DNA of 64,000 nt from Escherichia coli (lineage in GTDB: Bacteria; Pseudomonadota; Gammaproteobacteria; Enterobacterales; Enterobacteriaceae), in NCBI RefSeq assembly GCF_016903815.1, contig NZ_CP069973.1; one strand, 5' to 3'. Position numbers: made by a program. This document shows positions 18,801 to 33,800 of the stretch, in pieces (positions within the stretch are counted from its first letter, which is position 1; the number at the start of each line of letters is the position of its first letter).

Positions 18801-21800
18801 TGTACCGTACAGGCCTGCGGCTTACGCGATAACATGGATGAGTTGAAAAAAGCGGGCGTTGATGTGCTGGGTATCAGCACCGATAAACCCGAAAAACTCT
18901 CCCGTTTTGCGGAAAAAGAGCTGCTTAACTTTACGCTCCTGTCTGATGAGGACCACCAGGTGTGCGAACAATTCGGCGTCTGGGGTGAAAAGTCCTTCAT
19001 GGGCAAAACCTACGATGGTATTCATCGCATCAGCTTCCTGATTGACGCTGATGGCAAAATCGAACATGTCTTTGACGATTTCAAAACCAGCAATCACCAC
19101 GACGTTGTGCTGAACTGGCTGAAAGAACACGCCTGATTACTTTGCTCCATTCCGTGCTGGCTGCGCTTGCGGTCAGCACACCTCACTTCTCGTGATCAAG
19201 ATCACATTCTCGCTTTCCCCTGCGACACGGGTGTCGAATTCATTTTTTGCTGAACGTTAATGACCATCATTTTTGTACCGTTCAGAATACAGTTAATTCA
19301 TAACTTATTGAATACATTAAATTAATCAGACTGGCATCCTTTATGCAATATGAAATGCAATGTTTCATATCATTTTCAAGGAGCCGACATGAACCGCTTT
19401 GTGGTGGCCGAACCACTGTGGTGTACAGGATGTAATACCTGTCTCGCTGCCTGTTCGGACGTGCATAAAACGCAAGGTTTACAGCAACACCCGCGCCTGG
19501 CCCTGGCGAAGACGTCAACACTCACTGCCCCTGTCGTGTGTCATCACTGTGAGGAAGCCCCTTGCCTGCAGGTCTGCCCGGTCAATGCCATCTCCCAGAG
19601 GGATGATGCGATCCAACTCAACGAAAGCCTTTGTATTGGTTGCAAGCTTTGCGCCGTGGTCTGCCCATTTGGTGCAATCAGCGCTTCAGGAAGCCGTCCG
19701 GTGAATGCCCCGGCGCAATATGTTTTTCAGGCTGATGGCTCACTCAAAGACGGCGAAGAAAACGCGCCGACCCAACATGCTTTGCTGCGCTGGGAACCGG
19801 GTGTCCAGACCGTCGCGGTGAAATGCGACCTGTGTGATTTCTTGCCAGAAGGTCCGGCCTGCGTTCGCGCTTGCCCGAATCAGGCGTTACGGCTGATCAC
19901 CGACGATAGCCTGCAACGTCAGATGAAAGAAAAACAGCGCCTTGCCGCAAGCTGGTTTGCCAATGGCGGGGAGGATCCCCTTTCCCTCACTCAGGAGCAA
20001 CGCTAATGGATGCCCTGCAATTATTAACCTGGTCGCTGATCCTCTATCTGTTTGCCAGTCTGGCTTCGCTGTTTTTACTCGGTCTGGACAGACTGGCTAT
20101 TAAGCTTTCCGGCATCACATCGCTGGTGGGTGGCGTGATTGGCATCATCAGCGGAATTACGCAATTACATGCAGGCGTAACTTTAGTCGCCCGTTTTGCC
20201 ACGCCTTTTAACTTTGCCGATTTAACCCTGCGAATGGATAGCCTCTCGGCATTTATGGTGCTGGTTATCTCCTTGCTGGTGGTGGTTTGTTCGCTCTATT
20301 CATTGACTTATATGCGCGAATACGAGGGCAAAGGCGCGGCGGCGATGGGCTTCTTTATGAATCTTTTCATCGCATCGATGGTTGCCCTGCTGGTGATGGA
20401 CAACGCTTTTTGGTTCATCGTGCTGTTTGAAATGATGTCGCTGTCTTCCTGGTTTCTGGTCATTGCCAGGCAGGATAAAACGTCAATCAACGCTGGCATG
20501 CTCTACTTTTTTATCGCCCACGCCGGATCGGTACTGATTATGATCGCCTTCTTGCTGATGGGGCGCGAAAGCGGCAGCCTCGATTTTGCCAGTTTCCGCA
20601 CGCTTTCACTTTCTCCGGGGCTGGCGTCGGCGGTGTTCCTGATGGCCTTCTTTGGTTTTGGCGCGAAAGCCGGGATGATGCCGTTGCACAGCTGGTTGCC
20701 ACGCGCTCACCCTGCCGCACCATCGCACGCTTCGGCGTTGATGTCTGGCGTAATGGTCAAAATCGGTATTTTCGGCATCCTGAAAGTAGCGATGGACCTG
20801 CTGGCGCAAACGGGTTTGCCGCTGTGGTGGGGCATTCTGGTGATGGCGATCGGCGCAATCTCCGCGCTCCTGGGCGTGCTGTATGCGCTGGCGGAACAGG
20901 ATATCAAACGGCTGCTGGCCTGGAGTACCGTCGAAAACGTCGGCATTATTTTGCTGGCGGTCGGTGTGGCGATGGTCGGTCTGTCACTGCACGACCCGCT
21001 GCTCACCGTTGTTGGACTGCTCGGCGCGCTGTTTCATCTGCTCAACCATGCGCTGTTCAAAGGGCTGCTGTTTCTCGGCGCGGGTGCGATTATTTCGCGT
21101 TTGCATACCCACGACATGGAAAAAATGGGGGCACTGGCAAAACGGATGCCGTGGACAGCCGCAGCATGCCTGATTGGTTGCCTCGCGATATCAGCCATTC
21201 CTCCGCTGAATGGTTTTATCAGCGAATGGTACACCTGGCAGTCGCTGTTCTCACTAAGTCGTGTGGAAGCCGTAGCGCTACAACTTGCGGGTCCTATTGC
21301 TATGGTGATGCTGGCAGTCACTGGTGGGCTGGCAGTAATGTGCTTCGTCAAAATGTACGGTATTACTTTCTGTGGAGCGCCGCGCAGTACACACGCTGAA
21401 GAGGCACAGGAAGTGCCAAATACGATGATCGTCGCCATGCTACTGCTCGCGGCACTCTGCGTATTCATTGCGCTTAGTGCCAGTTGGCTGGCACCGAAGA
21501 TAATGCACATTGCCCATGCGTTTACCAATACCCCTCCCGTCACTGTCGCCAGCGGAATAGCACTTGTACCCGGCACGTTTCATACACGGGTCACTCCCTC
21601 ATTACTGTTGCTGTTACTACTGGCGATGCCTTTGCTGCCTGGCCTTTACTGGCTATGGTGTCGTTCGCGCCGCGCAGCGTTTCGTCGCACAGGAGATGCC
21701 TGGGCATGCGGCTACGGCTGGGAAAATGCGATGGCCCCGTCAGGCAATGGCGTGATGCAGCCGCTGCGTGTGGTCTTTTGTGCGCTATTTCGTCTACGAC

Positions 21801-30800: not shown

Positions 30801-33800
30801 GCCTGGCGAAAGTGTATTGCTGACACAAACGCTACAAACCCGACAACCGACCTTGACGCACCGTGCAGACGATCTGTTTCTCTGGCAACGCGACCCGTTA
30901 TTACACTTACTTGCATCTAACGGCTGCGAATCTGCGCTCCTTATACCGCTCACCTTTGGCAACCATACACCGGGCGCATTGTTGCTGGCGCATACCTCTT
31001 CCACTCTCTTTAGTGAGGAAAACTGCCAGCTACTACAACATATTGCCGATCGCATCGCTATTGCCGTTGGCAATGCCGATGCCTGGCGCAGCATGACCGA
31101 TTTGCAGGAAAGCTTGCAGCAAGAAAACCACCAGCTTAGCGAGCAGCTCCTTTCGAATCTGGGCGTCGGTGACATTATCTATCAAAGCCAGGCAATGGAA
31201 GATTTGCTCCAGCAGGTAGATATTGTGGCGAAGAGCGACAGTACGGTGTTGATTTGTGGTGAAACCGGAACCGGCAAAGAGGTGATCGCCAGAGCGATCC
31301 ATCAACTTAGCCCACGACGCGACAAGCCACTGGTCAAAATCAACTGCGCTGCCATCCCCGCCAGTCTTCTGGAAAGTGAGTTATTCGGTCATGACAAAGG
31401 GGCATTTACTGGTGCGATTAATACCCATCGTGGTCGTTTTGAAATTGCCGATGGCGGCACGTTGTTTCTCGATGAAATTGGCGATCTGCCGTTAGAACTT
31501 CAGCCTAAACTGCTGCGCGTATTGCAGGAACGGGAGATTGAGCGTCTCGGCGGGAGTAGAACGATCCCGGTAAATGTCAGAGTCATTGCCGCCACCAACC
31601 GTGATTTGTGGCAAATGGTTGAAGATCGCCAGTTTCGCAGCGATCTCTTTTATCGCCTGAATGTCTTCCCACTGGAACTGCCGCCACTGCGCGACCGTCC
31701 GGAAGATATCCCTCTTTTAGCAAAGCATTTCACGCAAAAAATGGCGCGCCATATGAATCGCGCAATTGACGCCATCCCGACCGAGGCGCTACGCCAGTTG
31801 ATGTCGTGGGACTGGCCGGGCAACGTGCGCGAGCTGGAAAACGTGATTGAGCGAGCGGTACTACTGACTCGCGGTAACAGTCTGAATTTACATCTTAATG
31901 TCCGACAAAGCCGTTTACTGCCGACGCTAAATGAAGATTCAGCGCTTCGCAGTTCAATGGCGCAGTTGCTGCACCCGACGACGCCAGAGAATGACGAAGA
32001 AGAACGTCAGCGCATTGTTCAGGTATTGCGAGAAACCAATGGCATTGTTGCCGGGCCCCGTGGCGCGGCGACGCGATTAGGGATGAAGCGCACCACGCTG
32101 CTGTCACGAATGCAGCGGCTGGGGATCTCGGTTCGCGAGGTGTTGTAATCTGTTTTTGCAGGAGTATGCATGAGAAACAAACTCTCTTTCGACTTGCAGT
32201 TGAGCGCCAGAAAAGCGGCAATCGCTGAACGGATTGCCGCCCATAAAATTGCCCGCAGTAAAGTGTCGGTCTTTTTAATGGCGATGTCCGCTGGCGTGTT
32301 TATGGCGATCGGATTTACTTTTTACCTTACCGTTATCGCCGATGCCCCGTCTTCACAGGCATTAACCCATCTGGTGGGCGGCCTTTGCTTTACACTTGGC
32401 TTTATTTTGCTGGCGGTTTGCGGCACCAGCCTGTTCACCTCGTCGGTAATGACGGTAATGGCAAAAAGTCGGGGCGTTATTAGTTGGCGAACATGGCTGA
32501 TTAATGCACTTCTGGTGGCCTGCGGTAATCTGGCAGGTATTGCCTGTTTCAGTTTGTTAATCTGGTTTTCCGGGCTGGTGATGAGTGAAAACGCGATGTG
32601 GGGAGTCGCGGTTTTACACTGCGCCGAGGGCAAAATGCATCATACATTTACTGAATCAGTCAGCCTCGGCATTATGTGCAATCTGATGGTTTGCCTGGCG
32701 CTGTGGGTGAGTTATTGCGGACGTTCGTTATGCGACAAAATCGTCGCCATGATTTTGCCCATCACCCTGTTTGTCGCCAGTGGTTTTGAGCACTGTATCG
32801 CCAATTTGTTTGTGATTCCGTTCGCCATTGCCATTCGCCATTTCGCCCCTACCTCCTTCTGGCAACTGGCGCACAGTAGCGCAGACCATTTTCCGGTACT
32901 GACGATCAGCCATTTTATTACCGCCAATCTGCTCCCGGTGATGCTGGGTAATATTATCGGCGGTGCAGTGCTGGTGAGTATTTGTTATCGGGCTATTTAT
33001 TTACGTCAGGAACCCTAAAAATCAGCCCGGCGAAACAGTTCGTCGGGCTGAAGATTATTCTTGCGCGATTTGCCCATCGGGCCAGGCGTGAATCACGGCT
33101 TTGATCAGCGTCGCCAATGGAATGGCGAAGAATACGCCCCAGAATCCCCACAAACCACCGAAGATCACCACCGATAAAATAATCACCAGCGGATGCAGGT
33201 TAACCGCTTCGGAGAACAACACCGGCACTAGCAGGTTGCCGTCCAGCGCCTGAATAATCAGATACACCGCGAAGCAGCTCCAGAATTCCGTGCCAGCACC
33301 AAACTGGAATAGCGCCACGCCAATCACCGGAATGGTCACCACAAATGCGCCAATGTACGGAATAAGAACCGAGAAGCCGACCAGCACCGCCAGCAGCAGC
33401 GAATAGTTCAGCCCGAAGAGTAAGAACCCCAGCCAGGTGGCGATCCCCACCACGATCATCTCCAGCACTTTGCCGCGGATATAGTTGGTGATTTGTTGAT
33501 TCATCTCCTTCCACACCTGTCCTGCCAGTCCGCGGTTACGCGGTAGCACCCGACGAACGGCGTTCAGCATCTGCTCTTTGTCTTTCAACAGGAAGAAGAC
33601 CATCAATGGCACCAGCACCAGATAGACAGCTATGGTGAGCAAACCGACCAGCGAGGCGAGGGAAATTTTCACCACCGAATCGCCCATGGTAAGCATCCGA
33701 CTGCGCATATTTTCGGCCATTGCATCAATAATGCCCGCATCCATCAACGCCGGATAGCGGCGCGGCAACGTGGCGGCAAAGTCAGAAAGCTTATTGAGCA

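Follow-up and report, generated by a model that had tools for sequence, protein, structure and literature searches.

The 64,000-nt stretch of Escherichia coli DNA analyzed here (contig NZ_CP069973.1, hereafter the window) contains twelve consecutive open reading frames (ORFs) on the plus strand that correspond to hyfABCDEFGHIJR-focB and occupy 13,630 nt at positions 19389–33018. This region was 100% identical to the annotated hyfA–focB segment of many RefSeq E. coli chromosomes, e.g., NZ_CP024862.1. Gene coordinates were taken over from the annotation of the latter, checked against the ORF list and compared with K-12 MG1655. With a probability of about 0.9, the region is the chromosomal E. coli hyf operon, coding for hydrogenase-4 (Hyd-4, a group 4a [NiFe]-hydrogenase and the core of formate hydrogenlyase-2, FHL-2) together with its sigma-54 activator (HyfR) and a formate channel (FocB), in an intact form with the ancestral full-length hyfG. 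The operon itself is already known, textbook content; the result reported here concerns hyfG, of which K-12 carries a shortened allele.

As originally predicted, all twelve genes are complete. Script translation gave no internal stops, and start and stop positions are as in K-12. The genes lie on one strand, in K-12 order and at the same site as in K-12, between bcp and yfgO. All twelve products fall in the expected Pfam families. Five are membrane subunits, namely the antiporter-like HyfB, HyfD and HyfF (PF00361), HyfC (PF00146) and the FHL-2-specific HyfE (PF00420), a named FHL-2 marker (bioRxiv 10.1101/563510); a NuoB-type small subunit (HyfI, PF01058) and two ferredoxin-type Fe-S subunits (HyfA and HyfH, Fer4 families) are also present. 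Neighboring genes overlap by 1 nt at hyfA/B (TAATG), 11 nt at hyfF/G, where hyfG starts with GTG, 4 nt at hyfH/I (ATGA) and 8 nt at hyfI/J, exactly as had been claimed, and the remaining junctions are spacers of 4–29 nt. The arrangement in K-12 is identical, and the overlaps are consistent with translational coupling. A search of the complete window against Rfam, with gathering thresholds, returned no matches, and a repeat search over the operon found no mobile or tandem elements, only short similarities due to hyfB/hyfD/hyfF paralogy.

Amino acid identity to K-12 across the twelve products was 95.6–99.8%, and product length was the same for eleven of them. The exception was HyfG, with 571 residues here and 555 in K-12. 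Comparison of product lengths with K-12 had been proposed as the check for truncated genes. No gene of the window was found truncated, but the use of K-12 as an intact yardstick did not hold, since it is K-12 that has the shortened HyfG, with a 48-nt in-frame deletion in the gene. HyfG from the window contains the Ni-Fe ligand motifs RVCGICG (residues 241–247) and DPCYSC (531–536), followed by a C-terminal assembly peptide of 32 residues after Arg539, predicted to be cleavable, and it matches HycE of the solved formate hydrogenlyase (FHL) complex (7z0s_E) with an E-value of 1.8e-292. Protein alignment with K-12 HyfG gave one 16-residue gap and only three substitutions elsewhere. The 48 nt missing from K-12 are GCCCGTGATTATAGCCCTGTCGGGCCGCTGATCCGCGGCAGTGGTTTT (Table 1). 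Perfect 10-bp direct repeats GCCCGTGATT were located at 27830–27839 and 27878–27887, separated by 38 nt, and DNA alignment showed that K-12 hyfG has one copy of GCCCGTGATT and nothing between. Such a pattern is what a deletion between short direct repeats leaves behind.

All 15 of the other HyfG-type proteins in the comparison, which came from Enterobacterales, Gilliamella, Shewanella and others, retain the segment, and 10 of its 16 positions are invariant among them. At the same place, E. coli HycE has ARDFSNVGPMVRASGH and MbhL of Pyrococcus (P. furiosus) has AIEMGAVGPTARGSGI. Since the segment is present in HyfG-type proteins, HycE and MbhL, the comparison clearly points to the hyfG of the window as the ancestral form and to that of K-12 as derived. 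The opposite polarity, in which the extra 48 nt would be an insertion or duplication of this lineage and K-12 would represent the original state, agrees with the K-12 reference being the shorter one, but it has next to no probability. It is refuted by the HycE, MbhL and 15-protein comparisons and was rejected; in addition, the segment does not duplicate its flanks in tandem, the repeat being 10 bp only, and it is found in 2179 E. coli genomes with diverse haplotypes.

Among the listed samples, the deletion is carried by MG1655, MC4100 and BW25113 (1668-nt hyfG), the laboratory strains on which nearly all hydrogenase-4 work was done, and also by BL21 and O111:H8. When 14 hyfG alleles were compared, the seven deletion alleles all shared one haplotype from the deletion to the end of the gene, and upstream of it they showed three different haplotypes, as in a mosaic. 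The full-length hyfG of strain A7 is three single-nucleotide polymorphisms away from one deletion allele. In this small sample of 14 alleles, the pattern fits a single origin of the deletion followed by spread through recombination. Recurrent independent deletions were also considered and are not favored, given the downstream haplotype common to 7/7 sampled deletion alleles in the same small set. No mention of the K-12 hyfG deletion was found in the open-access papers searched, although it may be described elsewhere.

Table 1. Features of the hyf region, with positions in the window.
Feature	Position (strand)	Product	Description	Evidence and comparison
Inverted repeat CGACACGGGTGTCG	19223..19236		Candidate HyfR/FhlA activator site, role predicted from sequence	~100 nt upstream of the sigma-54 element; identical in K-12
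Sigma-54 -24/-12 element TGGCATCCTTTATGCA	19332..19347 (+)		Predicted promoter element	TGGCAT-N6-TGCA; 42 nt upstream of hyfA ATG
hyfA	19389..20006 (+)	205 aa	4Fe-4S ferredoxin-type electron-transfer subunit, HycB-like	Pfam Fer4; 98.0% aa identity and same length as K-12
hyfB	20006..22024 (+)	672 aa	Antiporter-like membrane subunit	PF00361, E 2e-53
hyfC	22035..22982 (+)	315 aa	NuoH/ND1-like membrane subunit	PF00146, E 3e-58
hyfD	22999..24438 (+)	479 aa	Antiporter-like membrane subunit	G6 run 23087-23092 intact
hyfE	24450..25100 (+)	216 aa	NuoK-like membrane subunit, FHL-2-specific	PF00420
hyfF	25105..26685 (+)	526 aa	Antiporter-like membrane subunit	PF00361, E 1e-55
hyfG	26675..28390 (+)	571 aa	[NiFe] large (catalytic) subunit, full-length allele	Fused 30-kDa/49-kDa/[NiFe] large subunit (Pfam)
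hyfG 48-nt segment	27830..27877 (+)	ARDYSPVGPLIRGSGF	HyfG residues 386-401	No counterpart in K-12
hyfH	28400..28945 (+)	181 aa	2x[4Fe-4S] subunit, NuoI/HycF-like	Pfam
hyfI	28942..29700 (+)	252 aa	Hydrogenase small subunit, NuoB/HycG-like	PF01058
hyfJ	29693..30106 (+)	137 aa	HycH-family maturation chaperone	PF07450, E 7e-57
hyfR	30136..32148 (+)	670 aa	Sigma-54-dependent activator, GAF + AAA+ sigma-54 interaction domain	PF00158, E 5e-75
focB	32170..33018 (+)	282 aa	Formate/nitrite-transporter-family channel	PF01226, E 3e-63
GC-rich hairpin	33022..33051 (+)		Predicted terminator-like element between convergent focB and yfgO	Consensus scan; 4 nt past focB stop

The distribution of the two hyfG alleles was surveyed in 5426 complete E. 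coli genomes, which are not independent of one another. The gene was found in 4294 of them, and hyf is missing in about 1130 (~21%); its absence from B2 and related lineages has already been published (PMC2617782; PMC6896753). A 138-nt probe across the segment, required at full coverage, identified the 2179 full-length alleles mentioned above, and a 44-nt K-12 junction probe, unable to seed on the full-length allele, identified the deletion in 2113 genomes (39% of 5426).

Other lesions were located by reading 13 whole-operon annotations and by alignment, and were then counted with junction probes. A G6-to-G5 frameshift in hyfD, at the run equivalent to 23087–23092, occurs in 1103 genomes, a 1-nt deletion in hyfI equivalent to position 29289 in 686, and a frameshifted focB haplotype near the equivalent of 32850 in 638, including O104:H4; the window has none of the three. 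The hyfD slip was seen on both hyfG backgrounds and may be recurrent. With a concatenated probe, at least one of the four lesions (hyfG deletion, hyfD, hyfI, focB) was detected in 2859 of the ~4294 carriers (67%), and the four lesions counted one by one add up to the place count of this probe, 4540. At least one of the three frameshifts is present in 1666 genomes. The hyfG deletion is the only one of these lesions in ~1193 genomes and is accompanied by another in 920, and full-length hyfG is combined with another lesion in 746. Possibly intact operons are thus at most ~1433, i.e., 26% of all genomes and at most one-third of carriers. Extra decay specifically in deletion lineages was considered, but it found no firm support, as 920/2113 against 746/2179 is a modest gap among non-independent genomes.

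A fully intact twelve-gene operon is a minority state among E. coli, and the description of hyf as expected core content is not supported in that form. Intact operons with full-length hyfG were 4 of the 13 sampled: the window strain, SCU-313, WP4-S18-ESBL-09 and O157:H7 PA20. Rarer lesions comprise stops in hyfF and hyfC, a 208-nt hyfD deletion and a 6-nt hyfH deletion. The last one, in frame and equivalent to window positions 28530–28535, was seen in SCEC020022 and O8:H28 BMH-17-0027; it breaks the canonical CxxCxxCxxxCP spacing of the first cluster motif and has no pseudogene flag from the Prokaryotic Genome Annotation Pipeline (PGAP). In strain VL7S7 (NZ_CM177009.1), an example of stepwise operon loss, the 48-nt hyfG deletion occurs together with an internal stop in hyfF and with a larger deletion that takes in the 3' end of hyfG and hyfH and reaches into hyfI. 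Two points of interpretation are corrected by these data: the hyf locus, whose decay is widespread in E. coli, is no uniform part of the core, and K-12 is not the intact yardstick for it. Tables of gene presence give too high a number of strains able to make the enzyme when they score hyf as present.

The functional weight of the missing segment was approached by alignment to the solved HycE together with published residue roles. An AlphaFold2 model of HyfG, built from a 16-sequence alignment, had a mean predicted local distance difference test score of 58, with values below 50 around residues 384–402, and was not used for this placement. The cryo-electron microscopy study of FHL-1 describes a proton pathway from the active-site canopy via His284, Glu437 and Arg395 of HycE, conserved in FHL, membrane-bound hydrogenase (MBH), soluble hydrogenases and complex I; in the latter, Arg297 of NDUFS2 corresponds to Arg395 (PMC9474812). 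HyfG Arg397, inside ARDYSPVGPLIRGSGF, aligns to HycE Arg395 (the arginine of GPMVRASG), and K-12 HyfG has no counterpart. The tag of 7z0s_E shifts the numbering by 12, and the offset was checked with the PRG arginine at 478 and the glutamate at 437, as published. In addition, this HyfG scores 170.7 bits against the Pfam 49-kDa domain (PF00346), whereas K-12 HyfG reaches 129.6 bits, a drop of 41 bits. From the conservation of the segment and the published role of the residue, it is likely that the deletion disables Hyd-4 in K-12. The K-12 HyfG is probably crippled, and an intact operon like this one may yield an active enzyme, which K-12 would be unable to produce.

This bears on the long discussion about Hyd-4 in K-12. 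The enzyme has been reported as silent or inactive there (PMC7654741, PMC7384014), in agreement with the original prediction, which called it largely cryptic, and E. coli FHL-2 was named a "long-standing mystery" by Lindenstrauss and Pinske (bioRxiv 10.1101/563510). The obstacles listed by the Sargent laboratory are low expression, the lack of an accessory gene and differing views on conditions (PMC7384014). Following the first two, the operon of the window could be intact yet as silent or inactive as that of K-12, limited by weak sigma-54/HyfR-dependent expression and the lack of a dedicated protease instead of by the hyfG deletion, so that both copies would be functionally equivalent. The promoter region and HyfR are close to those of K-12 (99.4% amino acid identity for HyfR), the -24/-12 element is the same, and no hycI/hyfK-like gene lies in the operon. 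Even so, we find this explanation rather unlikely. In MG1655- and MC4100-based strains, no Hyd-4 H2 was obtained with the Phyc or T5 promoter or by swapping in the assembly peptide of HycE (PMC7654741); since promoter replacement and peptide swap failed, expression and processing alone do not explain the inactivity in K-12, and E. coli HycI is able to mature a Hyd-4 enzyme (PMC7654741). All those K-12 experiments used the deleted hyfG allele (MG1655, MC4100 and BW25113 were checked) and are therefore mute on the full-length one.

Since K-12 hyfG carries the deletion, the earlier account of crypticity in K-12, by expression and by machinery encoded elsewhere, may be incomplete. A broader proposal, which we put forward tentatively and hold somewhat short of even odds, is that the hyfG lesion, and not poor expression or a missing protease, would be the reason why Hyd-4/FHL-2 activity escaped demonstration in K-12, and that intact strains would have a working, possibly energy-conserving, second formate hydrogenlyase. 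If the deletion is the cause, the question of Hyd-4 inactivity in K-12 becomes directly testable.

Several observations weigh against a disabled K-12 HyfG and a working enzyme in intact strains. The deletion keeps the reading frame, the allele receives no pseudogene flag from PGAP, and in ~1193 genomes it occurs without any of the other three lesions. Some groups credit Hyd-4/FHL-2 with H2 production or ion fluxes in K-12 (review PMC11841067), and if that attribution is correct, the deleted HyfG keeps its function. Genomes with full-length hyfG often carry other lesions, as counted above, so decay is not specific to the deletion lineage. The promoter region shares ~96% identity with the K-12 one, and native expression in K-12 was reported as poor (PMC7384014); the operon is also without its own protease. 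Moreover, open frames in this strain are no proof of expression or function.

The first of these points would suit a neutral length polymorphism, in which the 16-residue difference leaves both alleles working and the window simply has an ordinary allele. The deletion allele is annotated as a normal coding sequence, it occurs in 2113 genomes, ~1193 of them free of the other three common lesions, and the 2025 review states that FHL-2 is active, evolving H2, in stationary-phase E. coli (PMC11841067). Neutrality is nonetheless unlikely, as it has to accommodate the invariance of 10/16 residues in the 15 other HyfG-type proteins, the retention of the segment in HycE and archaeal MbhL, the presence in it of the HycE Arg395/NDUFS2 Arg297 equivalent of a conserved proton pathway, the 41-bit lower Pfam domain score of K-12 HyfG and the failure of direct attempts to obtain Hyd-4 H2 in K-12 (PMC7654741).

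Regarding control of the operon, the motif TGGCAY-N6-TGCW has a single match in the 64-kb window, the element upstream of hyfA (Table 1). Since about one match per window is expected by chance, the case for it rests on position and not on count. As a predicted promoter, it fits the sigma-54 activator HyfR being encoded in the operon. The element is the same in K-12, but the base just 5' of TGG (position 19331) differs, being C in the window and A in K-12. The sigma-54 consensus prefers a pyrimidine just 5' of the -24 TGG, and the K-12 hyf promoter may be a slightly poorer match owing to its A.

The earlier statement that the operon has no maturation endopeptidase or hyp genes was confirmed. 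No hycI/hyfK-type protease or hyp gene was found within it, the largest gap being 29 nt (hyfJ–hyfR) with no unassigned ORF space, and none of the twelve products matched a protease family in Pfam. The dedicated hyfK/hycI-like endopeptidase gene that marks a self-sufficient FHL-2 locus of the Pectobacterium/Trabulsiella type is thus absent from the window operon, the same as in K-12. The working of the complex can be predicted from its homologues, namely FHL-1, whose structure is solved, and the FHL-2 enzymes of Pectobacterium and Trabulsiella, whose activity is known from experiments. Electrons would pass from formate dehydrogenase H through HyfA, HyfH and HyfI to the [NiFe] site of HyfG, where protons would be reduced to H2. 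HyfBCDEF would make up a membrane arm similar to that of complex I, with a possible role in moving ions, maturation would need the hyp genes and HycI, encoded elsewhere, and the gene overlaps would favor coupled translation.

The nearest known system is the hyf operon of E. coli K-12 MG1655 (b2481–b2492), reportedly described by Andrews et al. in 1997. Both share the twelve genes, their order, the chromosomal site, the overlaps and the sigma-54 element, but they differ by ~2–3% at the nucleotide level, by the 48 nt (16 residues) that hyfG has in excess in the window, and by the focB stop, TAA in the window and TGA in K-12. The hyc operon for FHL-1 (hydrogenase-3; 7z0s, 7z0t, PMC9474812) has a homologous soluble arm, with HycB-, HycF-, HycG- and HycH-type partners in hyf, and HyfG shares with HycE the Ni ligand motifs, an assembly peptide of the same 32 residues in length and the residues of the proton pathway, the counterpart of Arg395 among them. 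In contrast, hyf has five membrane subunits (three antiporter-like ones plus HyfE among them) versus two in hyc, and it has its own activator HyfR and channel FocB while lacking the hycI protease and hycA. The FHL-2 loci of Pectobacterium atrosepticum and Trabulsiella guamensis (PMC7384014; bioRxiv 10.1101/563510) contain the same hyfA–J set with a five-subunit membrane arm, and the Pectobacterium-type HyfG is ~81% identical to that of the window, with the 16-residue segment present. Unlike the window operon, they carry hyfK, the gene of the protease, and no focB within the operon. H2 production has been demonstrated directly for those loci and not for any E. coli hyf operon.

Outside the operon, the window is identical to NZ_CP024862.1 over positions 1–63174 and diverges after that, inside sinH. 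On the minus strand, 53872–63174 comprises an 8-kb gene for an adhesion-domain protein (53872–61914) followed by SinI-family and intimin-like SinH genes, according to the annotation of the matching genome. The new sequence at 63175–64000 begins with TGAACCGCCCCGGGTTTCCTGG and contains a minus-strand ORF of 232 aa (63217–63915) that resembles, by eye, an IS3-family transposase OrfB and is a candidate for one. An insertion sequence element appears to have inserted in the intimin-like autotransporter gene sinH of this strain.

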